A DNA stretch of 64,000 bases, taken from contig JACRHV010000004.1 of assembly GCA_016211945.1 (NCBI GenBank), positions 263,472 to 327,471 on the forward strand, read 5' to 3'. Positions 20,799-59,457 of this stretch are shown piece by piece (positions within the stretch are counted from its first letter, which is position 1; every line of letters begins with the position of its first letter). Position numbers and translations under genes: made by a program. The notes below the pieces were generated by a model. That model had not been told where the DNA came from. It did no database searches and was given only the letters and a program-made list of their open reading frames with translations. Source of the stretch: Minisyncoccota bacterium. GTDB taxonomy: Bacteria > Patescibacteriota > Microgenomatia > UBA1400 > UBA12028.

Positions 20799-20904
20799 AG
20801 AGAAACATCTTCTTCTGTAGCGGATTGCATCAATCGTCTCATAATGAGATAATTGAACATATAAATGAGATGAAAGGAGGCCTTCCAAAGGTTGTAGATA
20901 TTTG

Positions 20905-21075
20905 AGCGTGTGGCCCAACATCTGTTGGGATACGAGGAATGGGTCTTTTACTCTGTAAAAGAAATCGGGCTTTTCTTTAATGAAAAGTATCTGCGGACAC
21001 CCATCGGTTGCTACAGTCGTAAGTTTTGTTTTAAATCTTTTCCGTAAGGAAAAGGACAGAGAACAGAAACACGTA
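20905..21075 (+). ncRNA. Putative glmS ribozyme (GlcN6P-responsive) in the glmS 5' UTR
   Basis: Begins AGCGUG. Conserved core ...GGGAUACGAGGAAUGGGUC (ACGAGGA as in UUGACGAGGA). GCGGACACCCAUCGG corresponds to GGCGGAUGCCUCCCGG, with AUGGGU/ACCCAU replacing GGAGG/CCUCC as a compensatory pair. ACAGUCGUAAG matches ACAGCCGUAAG. It lies 70 nt upstream of the glmS start. Confidence 0.6.
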
Positions 21076-21143
21076 GCCAAACCTTTATTCTTCATTTTTT
21101 TTCTTTTCTTTAACAGTGTTGAGCATTTTCACAAGGAGGTACT

Positions 21144-22910
21144 ATGTGTGGAGTTTTTGGATACATTGGTCATCGATCTAACGCAGCGTTATTGGTGTTT
21201 GAAGGATTAAAACGGTTGGAGTATCGCGGATATGATAGCTGGGGAGTTGTGGTTGTTGGTCGTGGAAAAATTTACGTGAAAAAGAAAACGGGGAAAATAG
21301 GTGGGGCAACAGTTGATGAGCTTCCACCTGGATCATTGGCAATCGGGCACACTCGATGGGCGACGCACGGCGGTGTGACGGAAAAAAACGCGCACCCACA
21401 CCTTGACTGTACACACACCATCGCAGTGATTCATAACGGCATTGTGGAAAATTACGAAAGCATACAAGCAGAATTGGTACACGCCGGACATCGTTTTGTG
21501 TCAGAAACTGATACCGAAATTATTGCTCATTTGTTGGAGTTTTATGCGCATAACATGTCATTTATTGAAGCGTTTGTGAAAACATTTCAGCGATTGGAGG
21601 GGCTCAATGCTATTGTAGCGATACATCATAAAGAAAGAGTTCTCGTCGCTGCAAAAAAGGGTTCTCCTCTTGTCATTGGTTTTGGAAAAAAAGAAAACTT
21701 TATTGCAAGTGATCCTTCCGCGCTTTTACCACATACAAAGGAAGTGTACTTTCTTGAGGATGGGCAGATGGCAGTTCTCCGTGATGCATCTGTTTCAGTG
21801 ATGGAGAGTGCGTCACAAAAGGTTGTGAAGTTTTCTACGCAAATTTTGGACTGGGATGTTTCTCAAACTCATAAAGGTGAGTTCCACCATTTCATGCTGA
21901 AAGAAATATATGAACAACCTCAAGTTGTTTTGGGTATTGCAGGAAGTGGAGGTGAGGAGGTTAAAAGGATTGTATCTTTGATACGGAAAACAAAAGATCT
22001 GTATTTTGTTGGATGCGGCTCAGCGTCTTACGCATGTTTAGCCGGAGCGTATCTTTTTTCAAAAATTGCTCAGAGGCGGGCGCATGCGATTGCTGGGAGT
22101 GAGTTTTTGTATCACCTGGATTTTATCAATACAAAAAGTGTTGTGGTGGCTTTATCCCAATCTGGAGAAACCATTGACACCTTAGAGTCTGTGTCTTATG
22201 CAAAAAGAAAGGGCGCGAAGATTGTGGCTTTGGTTAATGTCCTCGGATCCTCTCTGTATCGAGTAGCAGACGCGAAGATTTTGATAGGCGCTGGACCAGA
22301 AAAAGCGGTTGCATCAACAAAAGCTTTTATTGGCAAAATCGCGCATCTTATTTTGTTGGCGTACGCATTGGATAAACGAGTGAAGGAGGGGCAGGAATTG
22401 TTGCGTAAGTCCGCGGAGGTTATACGAGAGGTGTTGGCGGAAAAAAACAGCGATCGAATAAAGAAATTGGCGCATCGTATTTGCGGAGTGAACCACATTT
22501 TTATTCTTGGCAGAGGTCTTTCATATTCTGCAAGTTTAGAGTGTGCGATGAAGATCAAGGAAATCAGTTATATTCATGCCGAGGGTTTGGCGGCTGGAGA
22601 GCTGAAGCACGGCACCCTCGCCTTGGTTGAAAAGGGGACTCCGTGTATTGTCCTTCTCCCCAACGATGAGACGTATGCCGCAACATTGGCGGGAGCTATG
22701 GAGATCAAAGCGCGAGGCGGATATATCATTGGAATTTCACCAAAAAAAGAAGGTGTTTTTGATGAGTATTTGCCTATTGCCGATGTTGGAGATGCCAGCA
22801 TGATCCCCATGGTTGTTACCGGTCAACTCCTCGCATATTATTTGGCACTGGAACGAGGTCTTGACCCGGATATGCCGAGGAATTTGGCAAAGAGTGTGAC
22901 GGTGAGGTAG
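21144..22910 (+). CDS. glmS: glutamine--fructose-6-phosphate aminotransferase
   Basis: N-terminal MCGVFGYIG (Ntn Cys2), two SIS domains, 588 aa; preceded by AAGGAGGTACT. Confidence 0.9.
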   Translation: MCGVFGYIGHRSNAALLVFEGLKRLEYRGYDSWGVVVVGRGKIYVKKKTGKIGGATVDELPPGSLAIGHTRWATHGGVTEKNAHPHLDCTHTIAVIHNGIVENYESIQAELVHAGHRFVSETDTEIIAHLLEFYAHNMSFIEAFVKTFQRLEGLNAIVAIHHKERVLVAAKKGSPLVIGFGKKENFIASDPSALLPHTKEVYFLEDGQMAVLRDASVSVMESASQKVVKFSTQILDWDVSQTHKGEFHHFMLKEIYEQPQVVLGIAGSGGEEVKRIVSLIRKTKDLYFVGCGSASYACLAGAYLFSKIAQRRAHAIAGSEFLYHLDFINTKSVVVALSQSGETIDTLESVSYAKRKGAKIVALVNVLGSSLYRVADAKILIGAGPEKAVASTKAFIGKIAHLILLAYALDKRVKEGQELLRKSAEVIREVLAEKNSDRIKKLAHRICGVNHIFILGRGLSYSASLECAMKIKEISYIHAEGLAAGELKHGTLALVEKGTPCIVLLPNDETYAATLAGAMEIKARGGYIIGISPKKEGVFDEYLPIADVGDASMIPMVVTGQLLAYYLALERGLDPDMPRNLAKSVTVR

Positions 22911-43821: not shown

Positions 43822-45726
43822 CTAGCCGAGCAACGCGTCGACATCAATCTCACCAGTGAGGAACTGTTCGAATGCCTCGTCATTGGGGATAAAGGTTCGG
43901 CCTTTTGGTGTTGGGGTAGGATGTGAAAGAAACGCGCCGCCACGCTTGTCTAACACATGTGATGGAATCTCTGCAATAAATCTGCTCACAATGGATCCCG
44001 TAATGTTTCCATAGAGTAATCGTTTCCGCGTGTAGGTCAGAAATAATTTCTCTTTTGCCCGCGTAATCCCAACGTAACAGAGCCGCCGCTCCTCCTCGAG
44101 TTGATGTTTGTCTAAAAGCGAACGACTGTGGGGGAATAGGCCTTCCTCCATTCCAATCATGAACACAACACCAAACTCTAGTCCTTTTGCCGCATGCATA
44201 CTCATGAGCGTCACCGCGGATTGGTTTGGGTTTTTCGCATTCGCTTTTTCCGAGGCCGCATCGTTTTCTACCAATGCCACCTGTTCCAAAAATTCTGTGA
44301 GTGTAGAAAACTCACTGGCAACAGACCGTAGCTCTTGAATGTTCTCTAAGCGCGACTGATCTTCCTCGATTTTTTCATCATAGAGATCTTTGTACTGCGA
44401 AACCTCGATTACTTTATCTAAAATGTCGAGCGGTGCCGTGGGAAGATGTTTTTCTGTGTTGAGCCAACGGATATACGCATCGAACTTTCTCTTTCCTAAT
44501 TTTTCTAGCCGTCCCACCGCAATTTCGTCTTTGTGATTTGAAAACACGCGGAGATAGGCGAGGACATCCTTAATTTCTTTGCGTGCATAAAAGCGAACAC
44601 CACCAACCAATCGATATGGAATCCCACTACGAATGCAAATGTCTTCAATCACACGGCTTTGCGCGTTTGTTCTGTACAACACCGCAATTTCGGAAAGATT
44701 GTGTGTGCGCATCGCCTCCTGGATATTCTGCGCCACAAACAGCGTTTCTTCTTGATCGCTTTCCGCCTCAAACAGCACGATTTTTTCTTCTGACTGCCGC
44801 TCTGTCCACAACGTAAGAACAGGGTGAGTGGTGTTGTTTAAGATCACCCCCGTTGCGGCATCCAAAATATTCTGAGAGGATCGATAGTTTCTTTCCAGTT
44901 TGTATTCTGCAATTGCGGGGAAATCTTTTTTCAAGAGGAGCATATTGCGATAATCCGCACCGCGAAATGCATAGATGCTCTGGCTAAAGTCCCCAACAAC
45001 CATGAGATGATTTTCTGGTTCTGCAAGCATCTTGCTTAAGAGATACTGCGCCTTGTTGACATCTTGATACTCGTCCACTAATACGTGATCGAACTGATTT
45101 TGATATTTCTCCAACACCTTACGGTATTTTTGGAACAACTCCACTGTTTTGTTGAGCAGATTGTCAAAGTCCACTGCGTGTTGCTCGGTCAATTTCTTCT
45201 CATAGATTTGGTAAACCTTTGCGGTCAATTCCTGATATTTTCCTCGAGCAACATCCCAATACTCGCTTGGCGTAATCATCTCTGTTTTTGCATTTGAGAT
45301 CATGCTCAACACGATGCGAGGATTTGCTTCTTTTGGCGGAATTTTGAGTTGTTTTAAAATCGCTTTTATGAGATCAAGTTGATCATCACCATCAAAAATA
45401 AGAAAGTTTGACGGAATACCGATCCAATGTCCATCCGCCCTGAGAATCTTTGCGCAGAGTTTGTGAAAGGTTCCGGAAAATTGGAGTGTGTGACCAGTCA
45501 TTTTACGCACACGTTCCGTCATTTCATGTGCCGCTTTATTTGTAAAGGTTACCAGTAAAATTGCTGAGGGGGAGATGTGCTTCTCAGCCGTGAGGTATGC
45601 CACGCGTGTGGTAAGTACGCGCGTTTTGCCAGATCCAGCACCAGCCAATACCATGGCTGGACCATCGCCATGCAAAACAGCGGCTTTTTGCTCATCGTTG
45701 AGGCCGAGAAGGAGATCGGAGAACAT
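43822..45726 (-). CDS. pcrA: ATP-dependent DNA helicase, UvrD/PcrA family
   Basis: Walker A AGAGSGKTRVLT, DEYQD, helicase motifs through VI (VGITRAKEKLFLTY). Confidence 0.85.
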   Translation of the reverse strand: MFSDLLLGLNDEQKAAVLHGDGPAMVLAGAGSGKTRVLTTRVAYLTAEKHISPSAILLVTFTNKAAHEMTERVRKMTGHTLQFSGTFHKLCAKILRADGHWIGIPSNFLIFDGDDQLDLIKAILKQLKIPPKEANPRIVLSMISNAKTEMITPSEYWDVARGKYQELTAKVYQIYEKKLTEQHAVDFDNLLNKTVELFQKYRKVLEKYQNQFDHVLVDEYQDVNKAQYLLSKMLAEPENHLMVVGDFSQSIYAFRGADYRNMLLLKKDFPAIAEYKLERNYRSSQNILDAATGVILNNTTHPVLTLWTERQSEEKIVLFEAESDQEETLFVAQNIQEAMRTHNLSEIAVLYRTNAQSRVIEDICIRSGIPYRLVGGVRFYARKEIKDVLAYLRVFSNHKDEIAVGRLEKLGKRKFDAYIRWLNTEKHLPTAPLDILDKVIEVSQYKDLYDEKIEEDQSRLENIQELRSVASEFSTLTEFLEQVALVENDAASEKANAKNPNQSAVTLMSMHAAKGLEFGVVFMIGMEEGLFPHSRSLLDKHQLEEERRLCYVGITRAKEKLFLTYTRKRLLYGNITGSIVSRFIAEIPSHVLDKRGGAFLSHPTPTPKGRTFIPNDEAFEQFLTGEIDVDALLG

Positions 45727-47546: not shown

Positions 47547-49217
47547 TTATTCTATTTTATAAATCGAGTATCGATTGCTTTCTATGATTTTTTTGTATCG
47601 TTTTTCGTAATACTCCTCATTCCCACCATATTCACCACGCACCTTGTCATCAAACACAACATATGAAACGTGATATTGCTTCAACAAAGCCTCCGTTTCT
47701 ATACTTCCCTTGAACATGGTCATAACATCTTGCTCAATAGGATAATAATCGAATCCGTAGGTCCATAGCCATCCACGAAACCCCATCACCACTTGTCTTC
47801 CGGACAAATTCATCACAGGATTGTTATGTGAATCAGAAGTAAGAAATATGGCATCCCTTGGAGTATATTTTCTGAGATACTCCACCATCACCAAATCGTC
47901 TTTTCCATACATACTCCAGTTATGCTTATTTTTGTCTACTGCACCATATGCATCAAGCATTCCTGAAAATATTGCCGTGATAAATAACAATATACCCAAT
48001 ACTTTTATGCTTCTTTGTTTTTTCATAAGAAGGGCATAGATTACCTGACCCGCTAACCCAGAAATTCCAAGAGATGCCCATACCAGTAATTTTGTATTAT
48101 CCCAAACGTATGGCTGAAAAAGGAAAAGGTTTAAAAGAACAAAAATAAACAAAAAAGGCGCTGTTATGTATTGAATTCTTTTTTGTGATCGCAACCATCC
48201 AATAATGCTAAGCGGGAGCGTTACTCCCCAGTTTACAATCCAAAACACAAACCAACTCATGTCTTTATGTTCTGCGTATCTATTAACAAACCAACCAGGA
48301 TACCACTGGATAAAACTCCCCTGAACTGTTTTGTTCACTGTTGGAATGTACCACACTACAATAACTGGACTTGCTATGAACAGCGTTGCCACTCCAAATA
48401 ACGCCCAACAAAACAGCGCATGAACTCTCGATTCATCATCTTCTTTCCTCATCACTGACCACGTCATCCACCATAACAATACAATGGCCATCATCATAAA
48501 CGAATGCATATGAATGAGAGGCATAAATCCAGCTAAAACTCCCATCACAAAAAATATTCTACTGTTCCACATCTTTCTTTTTTTCTGAATCTGCCTATAT
48601 ATTCCAATAAACACAAGTAGCGCTATTGGAAAACCAAACGTAAACGATCGTTGGGGAACAATCATGCTCGTTATAACACTGATCCATTCGATACCATACT
48701 GTGAGAGATGTGTATACTCTTTTGTAAAACCAAAAAATGTCTGCATGTTTGGGTTGTTCACGACATCTCGGAAATACCAAAGAAATCCAAGTCCTCCATT
48801 GAGAAGAAAAATCATTGAGGACAATATCGCAATACCTCTTGATCTAAACACGATTTTATAGAGAAAGAAAAGAGCAACAACAAAGATTAAACTGTATACA
48901 TAGCTTGGTAGTACGAATGCTGAAAAAAACTCCATACCGTATCGAATGAATACACCGCTGATCCAGTTCACAAGAAATGGATATGAGAACGTTGCACCAT
49001 ACAAAAGCGGGTGATGCGTCAACCACAGTGATCGATATGCAAACGAACTCCCTTGTGTAAAATGCATTGCCCAGTCGCCCCAAACATTTATCCCCCCAAC
49101 ACGAAGATCTTGACCGTCAAAAGCAATCATGTTCCACCATAAAAATGAAAAATACAAAAACCAACCGATGAAGAACAATAAAACAAAAAATCTATTGAGA
49201 TGCGAACGAGAAAACAT
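47547..49217 (-). CDS. large polytopic membrane protein, putative GT-C-type glycosyltransferase with a C-terminal soluble domain
   Basis: 556 aa, about 13 TM helices, then a 130-aa hydrophilic C-terminal domain. No precise family assigned. Confidence 0.35.
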   Translation of the reverse strand: MFSRSHLNRFFVLLFFIGWFLYFSFLWWNMIAFDGQDLRVGGINVWGDWAMHFTQGSSFAYRSLWLTHHPLLYGATFSYPFLVNWISGVFIRYGMEFFSAFVLPSYVYSLIFVVALFFLYKIVFRSRGIAILSSMIFLLNGGLGFLWYFRDVVNNPNMQTFFGFTKEYTHLSQYGIEWISVITSMIVPQRSFTFGFPIALLVFIGIYRQIQKKRKMWNSRIFFVMGVLAGFMPLIHMHSFMMMAIVLLWWMTWSVMRKEDDESRVHALFCWALFGVATLFIASPVIVVWYIPTVNKTVQGSFIQWYPGWFVNRYAEHKDMSWFVFWIVNWGVTLPLSIIGWLRSQKRIQYITAPFLFIFVLLNLFLFQPYVWDNTKLLVWASLGISGLAGQVIYALLMKKQRSIKVLGILLFITAIFSGMLDAYGAVDKNKHNWSMYGKDDLVMVEYLRKYTPRDAIFLTSDSHNNPVMNLSGRQVVMGFRGWLWTYGFDYYPIEQDVMTMFKGSIETEALLKQYHVSYVVFDDKVRGEYGGNEEYYEKRYKKIIESNRYSIYKIE

Positions 49218-49219
49218 AC

Positions 49220-50485
49220 GTGTATTATTTAAGCATGAAATACCTGATCCTTATACTTGTCTTTGCTTTTGCAGTACGCATGTATCATCTGACAACGCCC
49301 CCCACTTACTATTTTGATGAGGTATATCATGCCGTAACCGCGAAACTGTATGCACGCAACGATCCTGCGGGGTATGAGTGGTGGCATCCCGCACCCGAGC
49401 CAGACACTGCTATTGAATGGCTTCATCCTCCCCTCGCAAAACTCACACAGGCAGTTGGAATTGTTTTGTTTGGGGAGAACGCGATGGGATGGAGAATCTC
49501 ATCAGTTGTATTTGGTTTGGGAGTGATCGTACTGACATATGTATTGGCACTTCAAATATTCAAAGTGGAACGTATTGCCCTGCTGTCAGCATTACTTGTA
49601 AGTATTGATGGTCTACTCTTCACACAATCGCGTATCGCAATGAATGATATTCATGTTGTTTTCTTTATCCTTCTTTCACTTATTACGTATCTCAATTGGA
49701 AAGAACAGAAGATTTCACAAAAGAAACTCTTATTGTTGTCAGGTATTGCTGCGGGACTTGCTATCTCAACAAAGTGGAGCGGTATTTTCGTTCTTGGAAT
49801 TTATGGTGTCGATCAACTTCTTACATGGATAAAGGCATGGAAACTCCCAAATTTTCGAGTTATGTTCCACTATACATTCGCTTGGATCATTATTCCATTT
49901 ATTGTCTACATCATTTCGTATACCCAATTTTGGCTACAAGGACACACAATTGATCAGTTTATTGAACTTCATAAACAAACTTGGTATTACCAGACGCATC
50001 TCACGGCAACTCATACATATCAGTCTACACCCCTGCAATGGGTATTTGATCTCAGACCTGTGTGGTTCCACGTACAGTATGAATCTGGGAAAATCGCAAA
50101 TATTTATGATCTCGGCAACCCATTACTGTTATATGGTGGGTTTGTCGCTCTTCTGTATCTTTTTGCACAGAGTATTCACAAGTTTGAGTGGAGAAAATGG
50201 TTTCTTGTTCTCTCGTATTTCGGAGTATGGTTTGTGTGGATGTGGTCACCACGCATCATGTTTTTTTATCATTATGCGCCTGCTATTCCCCTCCTCAGCA
50301 TTGCGTTCGGATGGTGTATACATGATCTCACAAAAAAGAAAACCATTCTTCTTACGACGTTTGGATACCTCCTTATTTCACTGAGCATTGTATGGTTTAT
50401 CGTGTTTTATCCAAACATGGTCGGGCTTTTTGTTCCCATTGAGTTTGCTGAAAAAGTTTATTTTGCAATACCCGGGTGGAGATAA
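49220..50485 (+). CDS. PMT-family (GT39) polyprenyl-phosphate-mannose-dependent protein O-mannosyltransferase-like protein
   Basis: Loop 1 YYFDEVYHAVTAKLYARNDPAGYEWWHPAPE...HPPLAKL with the DE motif characteristic of PMT/GT39. Confidence 0.65.
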   Translation: MYYLSMKYLILILVFAFAVRMYHLTTPPTYYFDEVYHAVTAKLYARNDPAGYEWWHPAPEPDTAIEWLHPPLAKLTQAVGIVLFGENAMGWRISSVVFGLGVIVLTYVLALQIFKVERIALLSALLVSIDGLLFTQSRIAMNDIHVVFFILLSLITYLNWKEQKISQKKLLLLSGIAAGLAISTKWSGIFVLGIYGVDQLLTWIKAWKLPNFRVMFHYTFAWIIIPFIVYIISYTQFWLQGHTIDQFIELHKQTWYYQTHLTATHTYQSTPLQWVFDLRPVWFHVQYESGKIANIYDLGNPLLLYGGFVALLYLFAQSIHKFEWRKWFLVLSYFGVWFVWMWSPRIMFFYHYAPAIPLLSIAFGWCIHDLTKKKTILLTTFGYLLISLSIVWFIVFYPNMVGLFVPIEFAEKVYFAIPGWR

Positions 50486-53400
50486 CTACAATAATTTCAT
50501 TTGCTCAACGACCTGTTGTGGAATACCGTTTGGCCAACAATGGTGATGAAATTCACACTGTTTACATAACGCATAATTATCTGTCTTAGGAAAATGTAAT
50601 GCACGAATTTCTTTCATCACATCTTTAATAATGGTACGGAGTTCATCAACTTCTTCTTTGTTTAATGAAAATTCCTCTCGTCGAAACTTCTTTGTCTGCT
50701 TATCTTGCTCAACAAAATCAAAAATTCCTCGTTCAACCTTCAATGCAAATGTCTGATCCAAGTCTGCGAGGAGTTTGTAAAAAAGAAGCTGGCGTTTGTA
50801 GTCTCCTGTGCTATTCGCAGTTTTCCCTTCAATTTCATTTCTTGTTTTTGGCTGGCCGGTTTTGTAATCCACAACAGCGACCGACTTTTTCTTTGGATCA
50901 ATCCATTCAATTTTATCTATTCTCCCGCCGATGCGAACATCATCAACATAGACACGAGACCAACCATATCCCAAAAATTTCTCCAAAAATACGGGTTTCC
51001 CCAATTGATCTTTATACTCATCATAGTATGCCGATAACACTTTTCTTCCTTGATGAAGACGCGTAAGTTCTTCTTCTGGTGTAAGCACTTCTTTTTTTAG
51101 AGCAGTTTCAAATTGATTGACCATGTATTCTTTTTGAGGAACGTCACCTGTTTCAATAATTTTGCGATACACCATTTCCAATGCTTTATGCACCGCGGTT
51201 CCAAACGCAAGATAGTCTTGTTTTGCCCGAGGAACTTTGACCAGGACATTTAATTTAAACTTATATGCGCACGCTAAATACGTATTCATTGCTGTCGGTG
51301 TCAAGGTAAAGTCTTCAAGGAGTCCACGAAGCCAATCATCTTCCTCAATTCTTGGAACTTTATGTTCCGGTGTTTTCATGAGACGTTGGAGAGAGGCAAC
51401 TGTTTGCGACTCAAGTGGCTTATTCTCAATATCCTGTCGCAAGTTTTCTGGAATTTCTTCTATAAACATCGTTCGCGTATTTTCTTTTGATTTGTTTCCC
51501 ACGATTGTTGTCTGCGCATAGGACACGACAACCTGTTTTTTCGCGCGCGTGAGCGCAACATAGAAGAGACGGCGTTCATCCTCGTTTTCTTCTTTCTTCT
51601 CAAGTTTTGTAAACTTTATCATGCCTTCGGGAAGGGTAATGAGGTCTTTTGTTCGAACATTTCCCCATTTCCCGTCGAGCGCTCGAATAATGAACACATA
51701 CTCCCACTCCATTCCTTTTGCGCTGTGTGCCGTACTCAACTTCACCGCATTGGTACGAATATGAATATCTTCTTCTGTAATTGCAATGTGATGCTCCCGC
51801 ATTGTTTTAATGGTGTCTAAAAATGATTGTAGATTGAGCGCATGATGATGTTTTGCAACATTTTTTACTTCACTGAATAACGATTGCACTGCATTCATTG
51901 CATCCACAACGCTTTCATTATGTAAAGTCCAAGATAAGAATCCACTTTCATTCATCACTGTTTCAAACCATTGCGGAAATGTTGTTTGCGCATCCAGTTG
52001 CGACCATCGAACAATGTTTTCTATGAAAGAAACAATTTTTTTGCCATCCTCCAGTTCTATCCCGCCAAAATGGTCTTGATGAAGAATAGAAAACATTGAC
52101 GTTTTCTTGAGTGCGGCCTGACGTGCTATTTTGAGAATGTCTAGCGCATTGAGGTTTACCCATTCGTAGTTCAGCAGGGTGAAAAGATCAAGATCCTCGT
52201 GATTAGTCCGCACATCACAAATAACCTGAAACAGCACGAGGAGTTGGTGAACAATAGGGGAGTCGAGAATATCGGCCCCGCCACCAACCTCATACGGAAT
52301 TCCCCATTTTGTAAAGGCATCCTCTAGCGCAAGGCTATCTGCATTATTTTTATAGAGAACAGCAATTTCACTTGGCTCCACTCCCTTTTTAATGAGCTTT
52401 TGTACTTCTTCCGCCACGTATATTGTTTCGAGTGGATCAGAGGAACACGACACCACATGGATAGGCGTGTTTGCATGTTTGGTCTGCGTACGCAATGGCG
52501 AAGGATTTATTTTTAGCTTTTTTGATGATGAAGCCAGCGTTGTGTTTGTAAGCCCATTTTTTCGAATCAAATGGTGCGCTGCATCAAGAATGGATTGCGC
52601 TGATCGATAACTGTTTTCCAGCGTTATATATGTGGCGTTTGGATTTTTTTTCATAAATGCAAGACTGTTTTCTATAGAGGCGCCTTGGAATCGGTACAAA
52701 CTTTGATCGCTATCTCCAACAACAAAAATATTTGCCTCATCGCCCCAGTATGAGGTGAGTGCATGTAACACGTTGAGTTGCGCATTGTTCGTGTCCTGAA
52801 ACTCATCAACAAGCACATATTGAAAACGTTCCTGATAGGACTGCAGAAGAACTGGATCATGCGTAAACGCCTCAACCGTAGACGAGATCATGTCCTCAAA
52901 GTCGTATCGATTCATTTCTTTTAATTTTTGTTGATAGAGGATATAGACTTGAAGTAATTCAAGTTGTTTTGCATAGACGCGCTCATGTTTTTTCTTTTCG
53001 GTTTCTTTGAGATCCTCGTTCTGAGACCGCTGCCGATCTTTTTCAATCAATATTCTGAGTGCGTCCTCATTCACACCTTCCCGCTTCATATTTTGGATAG
53101 ACCACAAACAATCTTTCACATAAAAAAGGGGACTGTTTATTGGTTTTATCGCTTCAAATGATTGAGACCGCAAAATGTCTTCTATAATTGTAAATCTTTC
53201 GAGATCAGAGAGCGGTTCAGCATCACGGGAAAAAGGAAAATATTCTGGATTCGACTGAATAATGTCTGAACAAAACGCGTGGAATGTTGAGATATTCACG
53301 TAGTACGCGTCTGCACCAATAATCGAGAGAAGACGATCACGCATTGCCTTGACTGCGGACTCAGTGAAGGTGAGTGCGAGAATGTTGCGTGGAACAGTAT

Positions 53401-53602
53401 CCGTTTTTTTGAGAATTTGTGCGATACGAAGAGCCAATACCTGCGTCTTCCCTGTTCCAGGCCCAGCAATAACCATGACCGGGCCTTCAATGGTGTCCAC
53501 CGCACGCTTTTGTTCCAAGTTGAGTTTGGTGTACTCTTTATCAAAAATCGTCTGAGGTTTTTTGGTTGGAGTTGGGGGGAGATTTTCGTTCTTCCTTGGC
53601 AT
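50486..53602 (-). CDS. UvrD-type helicase fused to a C-terminal RecB-like PD-(D/E)xK nuclease with a Cys cluster (AddA/AddB-like single polypeptide)
   Basis: Walker A AGPGTGKTQVLA, DEFQDTN, helicase motifs. C-terminal VAVVDYKTGQPK (RecB nuclease motif) and CKQCEFHHHCWP cysteine cluster. 1038 aa. Confidence 0.75.
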   Translation of the reverse strand: MPRKNENLPPTPTKKPQTIFDKEYTKLNLEQKRAVDTIEGPVMVIAGPGTGKTQVLALRIAQILKKTDTVPRNILALTFTESAVKAMRDRLLSIIGADAYYVNISTFHAFCSDIIQSNPEYFPFSRDAEPLSDLERFTIIEDILRSQSFEAIKPINSPLFYVKDCLWSIQNMKREGVNEDALRILIEKDRQRSQNEDLKETEKKKHERVYAKQLELLQVYILYQQKLKEMNRYDFEDMISSTVEAFTHDPVLLQSYQERFQYVLVDEFQDTNNAQLNVLHALTSYWGDEANIFVVGDSDQSLYRFQGASIENSLAFMKKNPNATYITLENSYRSAQSILDAAHHLIRKNGLTNTTLASSSKKLKINPSPLRTQTKHANTPIHVVSCSSDPLETIYVAEEVQKLIKKGVEPSEIAVLYKNNADSLALEDAFTKWGIPYEVGGGADILDSPIVHQLLVLFQVICDVRTNHEDLDLFTLLNYEWVNLNALDILKIARQAALKKTSMFSILHQDHFGGIELEDGKKIVSFIENIVRWSQLDAQTTFPQWFETVMNESGFLSWTLHNESVVDAMNAVQSLFSEVKNVAKHHHALNLQSFLDTIKTMREHHIAITEEDIHIRTNAVKLSTAHSAKGMEWEYVFIIRALDGKWGNVRTKDLITLPEGMIKFTKLEKKEENEDERRLFYVALTRAKKQVVVSYAQTTIVGNKSKENTRTMFIEEIPENLRQDIENKPLESQTVASLQRLMKTPEHKVPRIEEDDWLRGLLEDFTLTPTAMNTYLACAYKFKLNVLVKVPRAKQDYLAFGTAVHKALEMVYRKIIETGDVPQKEYMVNQFETALKKEVLTPEEELTRLHQGRKVLSAYYDEYKDQLGKPVFLEKFLGYGWSRVYVDDVRIGGRIDKIEWIDPKKKSVAVVDYKTGQPKTRNEIEGKTANSTGDYKRQLLFYKLLADLDQTFALKVERGIFDFVEQDKQTKKFRREEFSLNKEEVDELRTIIKDVMKEIRALHFPKTDNYALCKQCEFHHHCWPNGIPQQVVEQMKLL

Positions 53603-53672
53603 GAGACTGTTGTACCGTATAAGAAACCGAAAAACAAGCGAAGGAGGAGTATCTGCCGAAGCAAATGAGAAA

Positions 53673-53978
53673 TCAAGATTCTGTGGTATCTTGTTGTTCT
53701 TCCTTCTCTGTCACATCGATCGTATACTGAACCTTCATATCATCAAGCATGAGATAAAAAGCTTTCGTGTACGTTGATGGCCCTTTTAGCGTTAATGTGG
53801 GATTGTCTGATGAATTATCAAAAGACACACTCACTTGTCCCTGTATACCTTGCTGTTTAGCCAAATTAAGCGCAGCGCGGGCCACATCAAACCCTTTCAT
53901 TCCTTCATCATAAGAGGCAAATACTAAACGTATCTCGTCAGGAAAAATAAAAATGATGTTTTTTTCTAAATCAGACAT
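53673..53978 (-). CDS. hypothetical protein (about 101 aa)
   Basis: The track ORF starts at TTG 54020, overlapping the upstream gene. The ATG at 53978 lies 4 nt after the upstream stop. No family recognised. Confidence 0.3.
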   Translation of the reverse strand: MSDLEKNIIFIFPDEIRLVFASYDEGMKGFDVARAALNLAKQQGIQGQVSVSFDNSSDNPTLTLKGPSTYTKAFYLMLDDMKVQYTIDVTEKEEQQDTTES

Positions 53979-53982
53979 ATGT

Positions 53983-55038
53983 TTAAGCCAACTTGTTTTG
54001 TGTTGTATATGCCTCAACAATTTTCATCCATTCAGCTTGAAACTCCATATGTTTCTTCATAGAGTCTCCGCCTGTTGGGTGCTGTAACTCCATACCAACG
54101 GATCCTTTTTTAACCTTCACTTTAAAATCAGCAGATCCGGGGGATGCCTCTTCACCTTCAATTGCAATCACACGCGCCTCCCACAAATAATGTTTCACCA
54201 ATCGCCGAAAATCCTTCTGCAAAGCACTGGGAATAATAAGGGTGTACGGATACATAGGTCCACGTTCTTCATGACCAACGACTTGATCGTACATTGCTTG
54301 TTTATCCTCTTTGTTCCACTTCAAGCCCCCTTCGGTACGTAGCCGCCTCCAAATCCCAACAATCTCCGGACTCGCCTTATCTTGAGCATTTTCAAGATAT
54401 ATAACATCACCCAATGGGGTGATTAAACAATCTTTGTGTGCAATCAAATCTTGGATTTGAGGATCATTGTCATTTGCAAACAGAGATACAAACAAACGAT
54501 TGAGGAAATGGTTGATAACAAAATGAACCATCGCTTCGGTTTGTAATCCTTTTGTGTGTCCCCAAATTGCGTGATCTGCCTTTTCTGAAACACCATCATG
54601 AATTGTTTCATTAGCTTCTGCTAATTCATGTCCCTCTGTCATACGAGTTGTTAGATCTATAATAGCGCGCTGAAATGTTTCAGAGGCAATATCTGAGACT
54701 TTTATGATATTCATCAAAAGTGTTTGTAGTCTCTCTGGACCAAGGGTATCAACAAAAACTTCAGCACCACCTCGAGAAACCTGTTTGGTACTATCGCCTG
54801 CAGTCTCTTGATTTACCCGCTCAATAACAGTGCGTTCTTCGGGTGAAAGCAAAGCGAGATGTCGGATGATCTTGAGGTAATCTATGTACATTCTTACAAT
54901 ATAGCGAAGCGGCTCTTCTCCAAGCTCATCGTTGTAGTTTGTACGAAGAACATCAATTGCATGTTGAAGTTCCGGTAATTTTGATAGTCTCTGGACAACT
55001 TCTTCTATTATTTTTCTTGACTGTTCATGGTAGTTCAT
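53983..55038 (-). CDS. hypothetical protein (351 aa)
   Basis: ORF-track entry. Mostly alpha-helical-looking. No recognisable motifs. Confidence 0.35.
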   Translation of the reverse strand: MNYHEQSRKIIEEVVQRLSKLPELQHAIDVLRTNYNDELGEEPLRYIVRMYIDYLKIIRHLALLSPEERTVIERVNQETAGDSTKQVSRGGAEVFVDTLGPERLQTLLMNIIKVSDIASETFQRAIIDLTTRMTEGHELAEANETIHDGVSEKADHAIWGHTKGLQTEAMVHFVINHFLNRLFVSLFANDNDPQIQDLIAHKDCLITPLGDVIYLENAQDKASPEIVGIWRRLRTEGGLKWNKEDKQAMYDQVVGHEERGPMYPYTLIIPSALQKDFRRLVKHYLWEARVIAIEGEEASPGSADFKVKVKKGSVGMELQHPTGGDSMKKHMEFQAEWMKIVEAYTTQNKLA

Positions 55039-55164
55039 GAGGGAATTATACTACTCGATATTTTCTTGGGGGGAAATTAGCGGAAAAATCGTTATATTGA
55101 AAAATGAAGTTTAGGAAAACGAACCTTCCAGCAATTGGATTATGGTTGCAGAAAAATAATTCTT

Positions 55165-55974
55165 TTACTGCTTTGCACGAATAATATCTTGCAATTTCGC
55201 ATGAATACCGGGGGCACCCATACAAATCGTGAAGTTCTCCTGTGCTCTCTCTAATGGACGTGAATAATTCATTGGTTTGCCCCAAAAATCTGTTACAACC
55301 CCACCGGCTTCCTCAATAATAGGCTGAACTGCAACGTTGTCCCATATCTTCGTTGTTTGATTGAGAAACGCACCATATTTTCCATCGGCGACGTGCGCCA
55401 TATCATATGCACTATTCGTTGTTCTTAAGTTTCGAATACCCAGAATAATCTTTCCCAATATCTCGACTTCCTTTACTGTTCTTTGTGGATCTTCTTGATG
55501 TCCATCGATGCCATATGCGACTAATATAGAAAGTGGATCTGTTTTTTCGGTAACCCGAATTTTCACACCATTACACGTAGTTCCAAAACTCTTTTCTGCA
55601 ATAAACAGTTGAGAAAAGGCTGGAAGAGCAATGCCACCTGCTATGGGGATATCACCATCAAGTAAACCAACCATAATGCCATATGTGGGCAATCCTGCGA
55701 CAAAATTGCTTGTTCCATCAATTGGATCTACTACCCAAGTAAATCGACTTTCACGATCTATAACACCCGCTTCTTCATCAATAATATTGTAGTCAGGAAA
55801 AACTTTTTGAATGCGCTGAATAATTTCTTTCCCTACAGCAAGATCTGTCTCTGTTAATACTTGATTGTTGTCACCTTGTTTTACTGTCTCCGCAACCTTT
55901 CCCCAATTGTCATGTGCAATTCGGGAAACTGCATCTAAAGTTTGAGAGATAAAGTTAAGGTACTTTGGTGACAT
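55165..55974 (-). CDS. suhB: inositol monophosphatase family protein (SuhB/IMPase/FBPase class IV-like)
   Basis: WVVDPIDGTSNF, EEAGG motif. Confidence 0.8.
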   Translation of the reverse strand: MSPKYLNFISQTLDAVSRIAHDNWGKVAETVKQGDNNQVLTETDLAVGKEIIQRIQKVFPDYNIIDEEAGVIDRESRFTWVVDPIDGTSNFVAGLPTYGIMVGLLDGDIPIAGGIALPAFSQLFIAEKSFGTTCNGVKIRVTEKTDPLSILVAYGIDGHQEDPQRTVKEVEILGKIILGIRNLRTTNSAYDMAHVADGKYGAFLNQTTKIWDNVAVQPIIEEAGGVVTDFWGKPMNYSRPLERAQENFTICMGAPGIHAKLQDIIRAKQ

Positions 55975-56017
55975 ACATCAAGATTATCCTAAGTGGGTCG
56001 ATTTATCAATCCTTTTG

Positions 56018-56090
56018 TCGGGGTGGTGAGACTCGAACTCACGACCTCCGCACCCCCAGCGCGGCGCTCTACCAACTAAGCCACACCCCG
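56018..56090 (-). tRNA. tRNA-Pro (anticodon GGG)
   Basis: 73-nt cloverleaf. Acceptor CGGGGUG/CACCCCG (C1:G72 as typical for tRNA-Pro), anticodon stem CCGCG/UGCGG with loop CUGGGGG, T-arm GUGAG-UUCGAGU-CUCAC, discriminator A. Confidence 0.8.
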
Positions 56091-56165
56091 AACTTTTGAC
56101 ATTCTACCACGCCCCTAAATTTTCTGATTATTACGTAGTCTCACTCAAGAAAAACCACTTTCCCT

Positions 56166-56201
56166 TTTGTAAGCTAATTGTAAGATTCGCGTGATATTGT
56201 A
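56166..56201 (+). promoter_or_regulatory. Conserved 36-nt element, copy 2 (TTTGTAAGCTAATTGTAAGATTCG + CGTGATATTGTA)
   Basis: Near-identical to 23474-23509. Ends 8 nt before the ATG at 56210. About 75 nt from the 5' end of the divergent tRNA-Pro. Confidence 0.5.
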
Positions 56202-56209
56202 TCTGCAGA

Positions 56210-56425
56210 ATGAAAATATATTCTGACCATATTCCTCATACTATATTTCAGCCGACGCGAGGAATGACGTTGTATTTTTACGACATAAGTAAACTTTTCT
56301 TCGGTGGATTTTTTCTTACGGGTATTCTTCAGGGGTATTTTTTCTATGCTATGATGGGAATAATCTTATCGATTCTCGTCTTTGTTGTAGCAAAATATTT
56401 GGAGGTTTTATGTGGGAATCCGTGA
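56210..56425 (+). CDS. small membrane protein (71 aa)
   Basis: ORF-track entry. Two hydrophobic helices (LFFGGFFLTGILQGYFFYAMMGIILSILVFVVA). Confidence 0.3.
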   Translation: MKIYSDHIPHTIFQPTRGMTLYFYDISKLFFGGFFLTGILQGYFFYAMMGIILSILVFVVAKYLEVLCGNP

Positions 56426-56544
56426 TAAAAGATTTAACAAGTGTTCCCGTTGTTATGGCATTGGGAATGACGTTTTTCCTCATGGTTTTTGCAAGCATGA
56501 CTACATACGTCGCACACAAGGACCGTGAAAAACTAAAGAAATAA
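56410..56544 (+). CDS. small membrane protein (44 aa)
   Basis: ATG preceded by TTGGAGGTTTT. Translation MWESVIKDLTSVPVVMALGMTFFLMVFASMTTYVAHKDREKLKK. Not in the ORF track. Overlaps the end of the 71-aa ORF by 16 nt. Confidence 0.3.
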   Translation: MWESVIKDLTSVPVVMALGMTFFLMVFASMTTYVAHKDREKLKK

Positions 56545-56574
56545 ACATATCTATTCTGCCCAAGAAGGAGATGT

Positions 56575-57660
56575 ATGCCGCCAACAAAAACAGTAACGCA
56601 AGTAAAACATGACGATTCACCTCAAGTATCGTTGAAGAATCAACGACTCCAGGCTGTTGCTATTGCAATGCAACAGATCGATAAAACGTACGGCAAGGGA
56701 TCAATCATGAAGTTGGGCGAGCGTATGCAAAATCAAGAAGTTATCCCAACAATCTCCACAGGATCTATTGCACTTGACGTTGCGCTCGGCGTTGGAGGTC
56801 TTCCTCGAGGGAGAATTGTTGAGATCTATGGACCGGAGGCCTCGGGAAAAACAACGGTTTGTCTTCATGTTATTGCAGAAGCACAAAAGCATGGTGGCAC
56901 TGTCGCGTTTATCGATGCTGAACATGCGCTCGACCCACAACGTGCGGAAGAAATCGGCGTGAATCTCGATGAACTCCTCATTTCTCAGCCAGACAATGGG
57001 GAACAGGCACTTGAGATCACCGAAACACTTATTCGTTCCGGTGGAGTAGATGTCATTGTTGTGGACTCGGTGGCGGCACTCGTTCCAAAAGCAGAACTTG
57101 AGGGAGATATGGGCGATGCTGTCATGGGCATGCAAGCACGCCTGATGTCCCAAGCACTGCGCAAACTGACCGCCGCCATCAGTAAGTCAAAAACACTGCT
57201 CATCTTCACAAATCAACTCCGCATGAAAATTGGTGTGATGTTTGGCAACCCAGAAACAACAACTGGTGGACAAGCGTTAAAGTTTTACTGCTCTGTTCGC
57301 ATAGATATGAGAAAAATTGGGAATATTCAAGAGGGTGACGTTATTGTGGGAGGGCGGCACAGAGCAAAAATTGTAAAGAATAAAGTAGCTCCTCCATTCC
57401 GCACCGCAGAGTTTGACATCATGAATAAAGGAGGAATATCAAAATCTGGAAGCGTTGTTGATGTTGCCGCAGAGCTTGGGATTCTCGAGAAAGCGGGAAG
57501 TTTCTTCAAATATAAAGGTAATGTGCTCGCTCAGGGTCGTGAAGCACTCAAGCTAGAACTCGAGAAAAACTCAAAACTACTTCTTGAATTAGAAAGCACT
57601 ATTCGTGAAAAAATTAAGCTCGGAAATATGCCTCGAGATGTTAAAGAAAAGATTGATTAA
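56575..57660 (+). CDS. recA: recombinase RecA
   Basis: GPEASGKTT Walker [24 protein letters not shown] loop L2 region, 361 aa. Confidence 0.95.
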
Positions 57661-57867: not shown

Positions 57868-59457
57868 ATGTCATTTTTTGGAACAATTTCCGGTTTATTT
57901 GCGCAAAAACAACAAACGGGAGGACAAAAGCAGCAGGTGCAAAAACAACCTGTAAGAAAAATTCCTCAGCCGCAACCACTAAAACCAGTACAGCAAAAAC
58001 CACCGCAACAGCCACAACGTCCTCAACCAATCAAACCGATGGTTATGGATGACACACAAATTCGTGAAGCTCAAGCACGTGCACGTGAGATTATTGTTGA
58101 AGCAAAAGACGAGGCACTCGCAATTCGTGAAAAGGCTGAACGTGATGCACGAGTAATTAGACAGGAAATCAGTGATAAAGAACGGTCGCTCGATCAAAAA
58201 ATAGCAACGCTTGATGCACGATTGAAGGTGCTTGATGAACGCGACGAAGAAACTCAAAAGAGAAAAGCGCAGGTCGATAAGACACAGCTAGAGCTTGAAG
58301 ATCTTCGTCAACAACTACTCAAGAAACTCGAACATGTCGCAGGACTCACTCAGGTACAAGCAAAACAACAAGTCCTTGAGGGAGTTGAGCGAAATCTATC
58401 AAAAGATGTTGCTCAACTCATCCAGGCCGCAGAAAGCAAGGCAAAAGAAGAGGCGGACGACAAAGCCCGTGAAATTATTATTGACGCGATGAAACATGGA
58501 GCAACGGATTACGTTGCCGAGTACACCGTTTCTGTGGTCAAAATTCCAGACGACGAGGTAAAAGGAAAGATCATTGGAAAAGATGGTCGAAACATTCGGT
58601 CGTTTGAACTTGAAACTGGTGTTGATGTTGATCTCGACGATCAACCGGGTCAAGTACGTATCTCATCATTCGATCCAATTCGACGTGAGATTGCACGCAT
58701 TTCGCTTGAAAGACTCGTTAAAGACGGACGTATCCAGCCTACGCGCATTGAAGAAACTGTAAAGAAAGTCGCTTCCGAGATTGAAAAGATTACGTACGAG
58801 GAAGGGAAGAAACTCTGTCATGCGGTTGGCGTATACAATCTGCCCGCAGACCTCATGCAGATTCTCGGCCGCTTTAAGTATCGATTCTCCTACGGGCAAA
58901 ATCTGATTGCACATACGTTAGAAGAAACCAAGATTGGTATTGCGCTGGCACAGGAAGTTGGAGCCAATGTTGAGGTAGTAAAACTTGGATGTCTCCTCCA
59001 TGACATTGGAAAAGTTGTCACGGAAGAAGAGGGAAGTCATGTTGAGGTTGGCGTAAATCTTCTGAAGAAATATCGTATTCCACAGGTTGTTATTGATTGT
59101 GTGGAACAACATCATGAGGACGTCCCCTTTACCTCGAATGAGGCGGTCCTTGTTTATGTTGCGGACGCAATTTCCGGTGCAAGACCAGGAGCGCGATATG
59201 AAAATTATGAGGAATATGTGAAACGTCTTACAAACTTGGAGACTATCGCGAAAAGTTATGATGCGGTAAAAGAGGCCTATGCTATTCAAGCAGGAAGGGA
59301 AGTTCGCGTTATCTTGAATCCACAACATTCAACAGATGATGACACGATCGTACTCTCCCATAAAATTAAGGAGCGCGTTCAAAAGGAAATGACGTACCCG
59401 GGAACTGTAACCGTTACTGTCATTCGAGAAACACGTGGAATCGACATCGCAAAATAA
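57868..59457 (+). CDS. rny: ribonuclease Y
   Basis: KH domain (KGKIIGKDGRNIRSFE) and HD domain (LLHDIGK..., HHED). N-terminal hydrophobic start followed by a Q/P-rich low-complexity stretch and coiled coil. Confidence 0.85.
   Translation: MSFFGTISGLFAQKQQTGGQKQQVQKQPVRKIPQPQPLKPVQQKPPQQPQRPQPIKPMVMDDTQIREAQARAREIIVEAKDEALAIREKAERDARVIRQEISDKERSLDQKIATLDARLKVLDERDEETQKRKAQVDKTQLELEDLRQQLLKKLEHVAGLTQVQAKQQVLEGVERNLSKDVAQLIQAAESKAKEEADDKAREIIIDAMKHGATDYVAEYTVSVVKIPDDEVKGKIIGKDGRNIRSFELETGVDVDLDDQPGQVRISSFDPIRREIARISLERLVKDGRIQPTRIEETVKKVASEIEKITYEEGKKLCHAVGVYNLPADLMQILGRFKYRFSYGQNLIAHTLEETKIGIALAQEVGANVEVVKLGCLLHDIGKVVTEEEGSHVEVGVNLLKKYRIPQVVIDCVEQHHEDVPFTSNEAVLVYVADAISGARPGARYENYEEYVKRLTNLETIAKSYDAVKEAYAIQAGREVRVILNPQHSTDDDTIVLSHKIKERVQKEMTYPGTVTVTVIRETRGIDIAK

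Follow-up and report, generated by a model that had tools for sequence, protein, structure and literature searches.

The question raised by this locus is whether a large helicase-nuclease encoded by a Minisyncoccota bacterium acts together with the products of the two genes immediately upstream of it, or alone. The locus occupies positions 50486..55038 of a 64,000-nucleotide (nt) stretch of contig JACRHV010000004.1; this whole stretch is referred to as the window, and all positions are given in its numbering. Exact matches in a protein database assign the source to a Candidatus Pacebacteria (Patescibacteria/CPR) metagenome-assembled genome. Calling of open reading frames (ORFs) returned three ORFs, all on the minus strand and at the same coordinates as in an earlier, sequence-only reading, which had suggested that the three genes may form an operon and had noted that helicase-nuclease fusions with unknown accessory genes recur both in anti-phage defense systems and in minimal end-resection machines. 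We favor the second of these alternatives. The 1038-amino acid (aa) protein probably belongs to the recombinational-repair toolkit of Patescibacteria as a helicase-nuclease that works alone, as a single polypeptide, and prepares broken DNA for RecA. The fusion architecture as such is known; what is new is an uncharacterized member of the superfamily 1A (SF1A) helicase/RecB-family nuclease type. The three genes are:

50486..53602, minus strand: helicase-nuclease gene, 1038 aa; PcrA/UvrD-like SF1A motor fused to a Cas4/AddB/AdnA-type iron-sulfur (Fe-S) PD-(D/E)xK nuclease, as assigned from the ORF call, Pfam and NCBIfam matches, and full-length homologues of ~1000 aa in Patescibacteria and Chitinophagales
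53673..53978, minus strand: small ORF with no assigned function, 101 aa from ATG; lineage-specific; starts 4 nt past the stop codon of the 351-aa gene
53983..55038, minus strand: 351-aa ORF with no assigned function; the N-terminal ~257 residues represent an uncharacterized helical domain family and the C-terminal ~90 residues an alpha/beta extension

For the small ORF, the longest mechanical reading is 115 aa from a TTG codon at position 54020. The ATG start was favored because the TTG reading overlaps the 351-aa gene and because the homologues are 99 and 90 aa in length; these were the only two found among 5.8 billion proteins, and both lie inside the same gene triad.

The domains and putative ligands of the 1038-aa protein map as follows:

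52646..53524, minus strand: UvrD-helicase N-terminal domain, residues 27–319, with Walker A GPGTGKT at 53444..53464, DEFQD, and motif III (PF00580, E 6e-66)
51512..52627, minus strand: UvrD_C domain, residues 326–697, with motifs IV–VI (PF13361, E 8e-36)
50537..51307, minus strand: PD-(D/E)xK nuclease domain, residues 766–1022, with D896, D912-Y-K914 (DYKTG at 50855..50869), and Q938xxxY942 (PF12705, PDDEXK_1, E 1e-30; PF01930, Cas_Cas4, residues 838–1024, E 9e-8)
51269..51271, minus strand: Cys778, putative Fe-S ligand located where the nuclease domain begins; either present or missing along with the three C-terminal Cys residues in 32 of 32 homologues
50537..50566, minus strand: C1013-x2-C1016-x5-C1022, three C-terminal putative Fe-S ligands, from the Cys alignment

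In a family alignment of 32 members (44–78% identity), every superfamily 1 (SF1) helicase motif was invariant. The invariant motor residues comprise Walker A (G47–T53), DExQD (D266–D270), motif III (G296, D297, Q300, F305, and G307), Y332-R333, T624, K629, G630, and E632, as well as Y681, T685, and R686. With motifs I, Ia, II (DExQD), III, IV, V, and VI on a two-RecA-domain core, the motor is an SF1A helicase of the UvrD/PcrA-like type. The Pfam matches and invariant motifs bear out the proposal that the protein contains a complete UvrD-type helicase followed by a C-terminal PD-(D/E)xK nuclease with a DYKTG motif (residues 912–916).

The motor gave its best matches, spanning residues 26–737, to PcrA, UvrD, and Rep (TIGR01073 pcrA, 376 bits; 1pjr, E 2e-83). 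Among solved structures, the sequence matches ranked in the order PcrA and UvrD, then AdnB (6ppu_B, E 2e-28), AddA, and RecB, the last with an E value of 7.5e-10 across 120 residues. All NCBIfam equivalog cut-offs were missed (pcrA, 376 versus 911 bits; uvrD, 282 versus 1144; addA, 118 versus 708; addB, 27 versus 487; RecB, 139 versus 696), so that the protein does not qualify as a PcrA or UvrD orthologue. It might still be argued from the ranking of its motor, and from the label "ATP-dependent DNA helicase PcrA" that sources give to some homologues, that the fusion is the PcrA/UvrD of the organism and serves in excision repair, mismatch repair, RecA-filament removal, and fork clearing, with its nuclease being minor or regulatory. 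We consider this quite improbable, since the window encodes a better candidate:

43822..45726, minus strand: plain PcrA/UvrD-like helicase without a nuclease, 634 aa; the likelier PcrA orthologue of the genome; synteny kept in three related loci (L004, L006, and L007)

This helicase scores 688 bits against TIGR01073, compared with 376 bits for the fusion, and is 27% identical to the motor of the fusion, from whose gene it is separated by 4.8 kb. Both genes are syntenically conserved together, and we therefore regard them as long-standing paralogues. Although PcrA, UvrD, and Rep share all of the helicase motifs, the 1038-aa protein has an extra nuclease domain of 300 aa whose catalytic residues are invariant across the family, and the fusion and plain UvrD genes differ in their fitness profiles in Southlakia epibionticum, as described below.

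Residues D896, D912, K914, Q938, and Y942 of the nuclease domain were invariant in the 32-member alignment, and nuclease activity is therefore likely essential to function. Assignment to the RecB-family PD-(D/E)xK nucleases is supported by a PF12705 score above the cut-off for that family, by the catalytic D...D/E-x-K and QxxxY motifs, and by fold matches. Sequence searches of the Protein Data Bank (PDB) with the nuclease domain alone, either as a single sequence or as a 16-member profile, returned nothing significant, and it was a fold search that gave matches. The AlphaFold2 model of the domain (predicted local distance difference test [pLDDT] of 90) was closest to AdnA (7sjr_A, TMq 0.62, E 6e-8), followed by AddB (4cei_B and 3u44_B, E about 2e-7) and then by the Cas4-family ACE1, Exo5, Cas4, and Dna2. 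These best matches are all Fe-S "iron-staple" nucleases; AddA ranked much lower.

The AddB-like CxxCx5C cluster noticed in the sequence-only reading corresponds to C1013, C1016, and C1022, to which a fourth residue, C778, can now be added. All four Cys residues were present in 27 of the 32 homologues and all four were absent from the other five. In 76 of 83 related loci, the C-terminal 300 residues contain at least four Cys, and many distant members have the spacing Cx5CxxC instead of CxxCx5C. One Cys N-terminal and three C-terminal to the core constitute the signature of Cas4/AddB/AdnA/Exo5/Dna2-type Fe-S nucleases, and the four residues are putative ligands of a 4Fe-4S cluster. One subclade (L011, L013, L014, L015, and L018 as well as P0073, P0088, P0090, P0093, and P0104, including Roizmanbacteria-labeled members) has lost all four Cys together with the C-terminal ~30 residues and has kept the catalytic residues; to judge from these sequences, it is a natural Fe-S-free variant.

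The best 120 homologues listed in a protein database search were all 959–1068 aa long and contained PF12705, and those that were named came from Patescibacteria. In a scan of species-representative genomes, the best 80 of the loci listed cover the full length of the protein. They fall into two groups, one from many classes of Patescibacteria (WWE3, Peregrinibacteria, Roizmanbacteria, Paceibacteria, Saccharibacteria-labeled, Nomurabacteria, and Kaiserbacteria) and the other from the Bacteroidota order Chitinophagales (32–35% identity). Identity declines gradually, from 78% to 33%, across the classes and into Chitinophagales, and the copies in the latter order imply that the two groups either have shared the gene since ancient times or have exchanged it by transfer. 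The Chitinophagaceae and Saprospiraceae copies (L032–L087) have recR two genes downstream and the Cx5CxxC spacing. Close Patescibacteria-type copies were also found in metagenome-assembled genomes titled "uncultured Pseudomonadales," "Gammaproteobacteria," or "Bifidobacteriaceae" (L009, L011, L013, L016, L028, L038, L068, and L085); these are probably mislabeled bins.

For a survey of gene neighborhoods, ORFs were called in 88 loci and the resulting 1063 proteins were clustered, with the question of a partner being assessed over 84 helicase-nuclease neighborhoods. No gene family accompanied the helicase-nuclease throughout these 84 neighborhoods. An annotation check showed that the recurrent neighbors are clade-specific and housekeeping genes: in Paceibacteria-type genomes, dnaG-rpoD upstream and genes for a DsbA-like protein and an RNase H-like exonuclease downstream; in ~28–30 Chitinophagaceae loci, genes for an Ig-like lipoprotein, recR, and metH downstream, with recR being two genes away in about 28. 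In one relative (L007), recJ lies directly upstream. The helicase-nuclease gene is a vertically inherited, widespread, stand-alone housekeeping gene across Patescibacteria and Chitinophagales.

As far as its motifs and predicted fold indicate, the 1038-aa protein combines an active-looking motor of the AddA/AdnB class with a nuclease of the AddB/AdnA class in one chain. This result upholds the view that features of AddA and AddB are mixed in a single polypeptide, with the refinement that the motor matches PcrA best and that the nuclease model lies near AdnA and AddB and far from AddA. We compared this arrangement with those of known end-resection enzymes. In AdnAB, each subunit is likewise a chain of ~1000–1100 aa that starts with a UvrD-like motor and ends with a RecB-family nuclease; the nuclease model of the 1038-aa protein is closest to AdnA, and its motor matches AdnB significantly. 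AdnAB is, however, an obligate heterodimer encoded by two adjacent paralogous genes, with the active motor (AdnB) and the Fe-S nuclease (AdnA) on separate chains, whereas here the active-looking motor and the Fe-S-type nuclease share one chain and no ~1000-aa paralogue is adjacent at any locus, so that the similarity to AdnAB is one of fold and layout only. AddAB also contains SF1A motor and PD-(D/E)xK nuclease domains, and AddB has the same C...CxxCx5C iron staple of one plus three Cys residues. In AddAB, however, the Fe-S nuclease resides in AddB, whose helicase domain is inactive, and AddA pairs a motor with a nuclease that lacks an Fe-S cluster; here there is one gene, with no AddB-like neighbor in the window or in the 84 loci. 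RecB resembles the 1038-aa protein in being a single chain with an SF1A motor, a linker, and a C-terminal PD-(D/E)xK nuclease, but its nuclease has no Fe-S cluster, it needs RecC and RecD, and the sequence similarity is weak; neither recC nor recD was found in the window.

The characterized bacterial end-resection enzymes with such domains (AddAB, AdnAB, and RecBCD) are all hetero-oligomers, which would fit a model in which the 1038-aa protein is half of an AddAB/AdnAB-like two-subunit machine, either with an unlinked partner or by obligate pairing with itself, so that one copy of the homodimer would lead while the second would contribute the Fe-S nuclease that splits the fork. The AdnB match described above and the fact that AdnA and AdnB are paralogues with the same motor-plus-nuclease layout (PMC8789073) point in the same direction. 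Against this model, which we regard as unlikely, no second ~1000-aa paralogue or AddB-like gene was adjacent to the helicase-nuclease gene anywhere in the 84 neighborhoods. The addAB and adnAB gene pairs are normally adjacent. The window encodes no second large helicase or nuclease subunit, with its largest other ORFs being ≤634 aa, and the claim that there is no partner subunit nearby thus holds for the window and for the 84 related loci. The published tables for Southlakia epibionticum, moreover, list a single PF12705 protein and neither AddB nor RecB.

The relation of the helicase-nuclease gene to the two genes upstream was addressed through the organization of the surrounding region, in which the following genes were identified:

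49220..50485, plus strand: protein-O-mannosyltransferase-like (PMT) gene, convergent with the helicase gene
55165..55974, minus strand: inositol-monophosphatase/HisN-like (IMPase-like) gene, upstream of the 351-aa gene
56017..56090, minus strand: tRNA-Pro(GGG), a conserved anchor upstream of the variable slot before the helicase gene; same tRNA upstream in L001, L004, and L006
56575..57660, plus strand: recA (Pfam), 3 kb from the helicase-nuclease gene
57868..59457, plus strand: RNase Y gene (rny)

The order tRNA-Pro, 351-aa gene, small ORF, helicase gene was found, in addition to the window, only in L001 and on the short contig L092. Identity between L001 and the window is 78% for the helicase, 75% for the 351-aa protein, and 72% for the small ORF. 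In relatives whose helicase is 54–61% identical, the backbone is kept as RNase Y, recA, tRNA-Pro, the slot, helicase-nuclease, the convergent PMT gene, a 556-aa protein, TIM, plain UvrD, and FemAB, and the slot contains instead a gene for a HAD hydrolase (L004–L006) or recJ (L007). A 59%-identical homologue of the 351-aa protein is encoded between dnaX and ybaB in L002, and homologues with ≤47% identity (L003 and L088–L091) occur in other, unrelated contexts with no helicase. Given that the triad is limited to three lineages, that the slot is refilled in relatives, and that the 351-aa protein has homologues elsewhere, comparison of these loci indicates that the two upstream genes entered the variable slot, which is bounded by tRNA-Pro and the helicase gene, recently and only in this lineage, and that they are not conserved partners of the helicase gene. 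No flanking repeats or integrase were found around the inserted pair, and a search of 49000..57000 for repeats and att-like sites gave only chance-level matches.

Two promoter-like elements were identified in the segment and at its upstream edge:

53603..53643, minus strand: promoter-like element of the helicase gene, with TTGTTT (53632..53637), a 17-nt spacer, TACAAC (53609..53614), 6 nt, and ATG
55045..55050, minus strand: TATAAT box at position –12 relative to the start codon of the 351-aa gene, a putative leaderless-type promoter of this gene, also present in L001 and L092

Across the window, L001, and L092, the 41 nt that precede the helicase ATG show 100% identity, compared with ~78% for the coding DNA. 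L004, L006, and L007, which differ in the gene upstream and whose helicase proteins are 54–61% identical, retain the core CTTGTTTTT...GTACAAC...CTC-ATG. In other Patescibacteria, a TATAAT or TATACT box is common at –12 or –13 of the helicase-nuclease gene, and in Chitinophagaceae a Bacteroidota-type TAnnTTTG element lies directly 5' of the ATG. Because a promoter-like element is kept whichever gene is located upstream, the helicase gene seems, across the whole family, to be transcribed as a unit of its own. The 41-nt element may instead be a regulatory operator. An RNA hairpin in the element was rejected as too weak (–2.6 kcal/mol), with the promoter reading being preferred, and inspection for an SOS/LexA box revealed no convincing palindrome. 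Generic consensus scans for promoters and terminators performed no better than shuffled controls.

The TATAAT box of the 351-aa gene is likewise present in L001 and L092, where the next gene upstream is tRNA-Pro and not the IMPase-like gene. The 101-aa ORF has neither a –12 box nor a ribosome-binding site signal; coupling to the 351-aa gene is probable, given that the small ORF lacks a signal of its own and starts 4 nt past the preceding stop codon. Of 56 ORFs in the window, 16 have a TAnnnT hexamer that begins precisely at –12 relative to the ATG (for example, at 55045..55050, 53609..53614, 15391, 19773, 29892, and 33606), compared with 0–5 ORFs for other offsets; the presumed –10 box of the helicase gene shares this geometry. 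Genes without the –12 box, including recA, rny, and glmS, tend to have GGAGG-type ribosome-binding sites. This enrichment of the –12 box suggests widespread leaderless-type transcription in the genome, with the organism appearing to use many promoters of this type.

These results bear directly on the proposal that the three co-directional genes form one module, be it an anti-phage system or a helicase-nuclease assisted by two accessory subunits of its own. The gaps of 4 nt (351-aa gene to 101-aa ORF) and 70 nt (101-aa ORF to helicase gene), with no terminator predicted between the genes, and the recurrence of the triad in L001 and L092 are compatible with such a module. But the three lineages that share the triad are closely related, the slot holds a HAD hydrolase gene or recJ once helicase identity falls to 54–61%, the 351-aa family (130 clusters) occurs in unrelated contexts, the 101-aa ORF has two homologues only, and the helicase gene retains its own promoter-like element regardless of the upstream gene. 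The sequence-only reading had itself named independent promoters of the upstream genes and a lack of conservation with the helicase-nuclease as findings that would speak against the operon, and our results point to both: the pair is kept only in the window, L001, and L092, and the 351-aa and helicase genes each have a promoter-like element of their own.

The defense variant of the module draws on strong PADLOC matches of the 1038-aa protein to the models for Gabija GajB and the DRT helicase (DRT RTasHel), with E values down to 1e-81. These matches reflect the generic UvrD-type helicase core and stop short of residues 740–1038. GajB acts together with GajA and lacks a nuclease domain, and there is no GajA-like gene here; the required components (GajA plus GajB, or reverse transcriptase [RT] plus helicase) are not co-located, the context is not a defense island, and the upstream proteins and neighbors match no PADLOC model. 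A survey of Cas4-like proteins found fusions of a UvrD-like SF1 helicase with a pfam12705 Cas4-like nuclease to be the largest branch of pfam12705, with some linked to type III restriction-modification (R-M) or Dcm/Vsr genes and the others standing alone, and predicted a RecB/AddB-like role for them (Hudaiberdiev et al. 2017, PMC5704561). The linkage of such fusions to R-M loci elsewhere also speaks for a defense module, and the 1038-aa protein has the same architecture. The fusions in that survey, however, occur in type III R-M and Dcm/Vsr contexts and in genomes that mostly also have RecB, whereas the neighbors here are housekeeping and recombination genes. No R-M, Dcm/Vsr, or other defense genes recurred among the neighbors in the 84 loci, and the distribution is that of a core gene and not of a patchy island gene. 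We therefore consider a three-gene module of either kind very improbable and would not retain the locus among defense candidates.

Evidence regarding function comes from published transposon sequencing (Tn-seq) of the Saccharibacterium Southlakia epibionticum (PMC10633639). The protein SEML1_0364 (1093 aa) of this organism contains PF00580, PF13361, and PF12705, has AddB domains according to ECOD, is flagged as a core family (Tables S1 and S2 of that study), and is the only PF12705 protein in the table; no RecB, AddB, or RecQ is annotated (PMC10633639). Over three passages, SEML1_0364 was classified as NE/NE/GD (NE, non-essential; GD, growth-defective), with reads falling from 8081 to 1516 to 361. 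The same pattern was apparent for recA (790 to 264 to 43 reads), and recF was also NE/NE/GD (SEML1_0767 and SEML1_0003 being among the rows compared), whereas the plain UvrD SEML1_0668 was NE/NE/NE and recJ stayed non-essential (PMC10633639). This depletion of SEML1_0364 in the manner of recA and recF, and unlike that of plain UvrD, is not discussed by the authors of PMC10633639. On the basis of the Tn-seq profile and of the recA, recJ, and recR neighborhoods, we favor an end-processing enzyme of the RecA pathway.

In the mechanism that we propose, the ATP-driven, PcrA/UvrD-like SF1A motor would load at a DNA end or gap and move 3'→5' along one strand. The Fe-S-stapled PD-(D/E)xK nuclease, tethered by a linker of ~50 residues, would be of the AdnA/AddB type, in which the nuclease is placed at the fork to cleave the 5' strand as it is displaced; in AdnAB, the Fe-S subdomain of AdnA is located at the Y-junction (fork), AdnA cuts the 5' strand, and AdnB is the active motor (PMC8789073). 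The nuclease would degrade the unwound DNA and leave a 3' single strand for RecA. The gene would have a promoter to itself, its mRNA probably being leaderless, and the 351-aa and 101-aa genes would form a separate two-gene unit with no part in the machine. The domain content, intact motifs, family distribution, lack of a conserved partner, synteny, and promoter-like elements come directly from the sequences; the enzymatic activities, the strand polarity of cutting, the binding of an Fe-S cluster, and the role in RecA-dependent repair are all predictions from our analysis.

Several points weigh against a stand-alone repair enzyme. The orthology of SEML1_0364 to the 1038-aa protein is deduced from identical Pfam architecture and from the Saccharibacteria-labeled members of the family, and the likeness of its Tn-seq profile to that of recA is correlative. 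A literature search found no biochemical study of any family member, with polarity, strand cut, and Fe-S binding being taken from related enzymes and sequence features; a search on double-strand-break processing in Patescibacteria also yielded nothing on point. The portion of the genome seen amounts to 64 kb, so that an unlinked partner, or an AddAB or RecBCD enzyme, might be encoded elsewhere. Co-transcription of the helicase gene by read-through is possible, since no terminator was predicted in the gap that separates it from the 101-aa ORF. Finally, UvrD-Cas4-like fusions are tied by gene neighborhood to type III R-M and Dcm/Vsr in other bacteria, and an ancillary role related to defense is thus documented for this architecture (PMC5704561). 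A paper on a Cas4-like protein of JCVI-syn3.0 that was retrieved proved irrelevant.

If the protein does act as a stand-alone repair enzyme, the reduced genomes of Patescibacteria would process breaks with one chain of ~1000 residues, compared with the two or three subunits of AddAB, AdnAB, and RecBCD, and the protein would provide a compact model for the coupling of unwinding to strand cutting. It would also be a candidate explanation for the supply of RecA substrate in a quarter of bacterial diversity. A stronger version, which we put forward tentatively and lean slightly against, is that this polypeptide is the only enzyme of the AddAB/RecBCD/AdnAB class in Patescibacteria, a minimal one-chain machine for double-strand-break resection that unites the leading SF1A motor with the Fe-S nuclease that splits the fork. 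To our knowledge, all characterized bacterial resection enzymes carry these two elements on different subunits. A sole one-chain enzyme would represent the ancestral or the most reduced form of bacterial end resection and would be of moderate interest to the DNA-repair field. The question can be approached experimentally in genetically tractable, cultivated Saccharibacteria.

The two upstream ORFs are real genes, given the low ratios of nonsynonymous to synonymous substitution (dN/dS) with respect to the closest relative (0.14 and 0.10 for the 351-aa and 101-aa ORFs, respectively), indicative of purifying selection; their base composition is native. In agreement with the description of the pair as co-directional proteins without recognizable domains, neither gave a meaningful match in Pfam, NCBIfam, PADLOC, or PHROGs. 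A word-indexed search found three homologues of the 351-aa protein and an exhaustive profile search 130 cluster representatives, mostly of 235–280 aa and covering the first ~257 residues only. This N-terminal region defines an unannotated family of ~250 aa (P0125–P0252) with the near-invariant residues D148, G160/H161, H177, R181, K202-D203, W230, and W241. Because the polar residues D148, H161, H177, R181, and K202-D203 are conserved, the family is probably an uncharacterized enzyme. Fusions to RimL-like GNAT acetyltransferases occur in a few members. A profile search of the PDB with the 351-aa protein gave no match, and its structure model (pLDDT of 68) had no significant structural neighbor. 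The homologue in L002 (3933..4976), between dnaX and ybaB, breaks the highly conserved dnaX-ybaB(-recR) order.

Two further observations concern other parts of the window. The 556-aa protein of the conserved backbone (47547..49217, minus strand) has no Pfam, NCBIfam, or PADLOC match and adjoins the PMT-like glycosyltransferase in L004–L007 as well (33–62% identity), and it may be a partner of this glycosyltransferase. A glmS ribozyme/riboswitch (RF00234, 56.9 bits) is located at 20894..21080 on the plus strand, directly 5' of a 588-aa ORF at 21144..22910.

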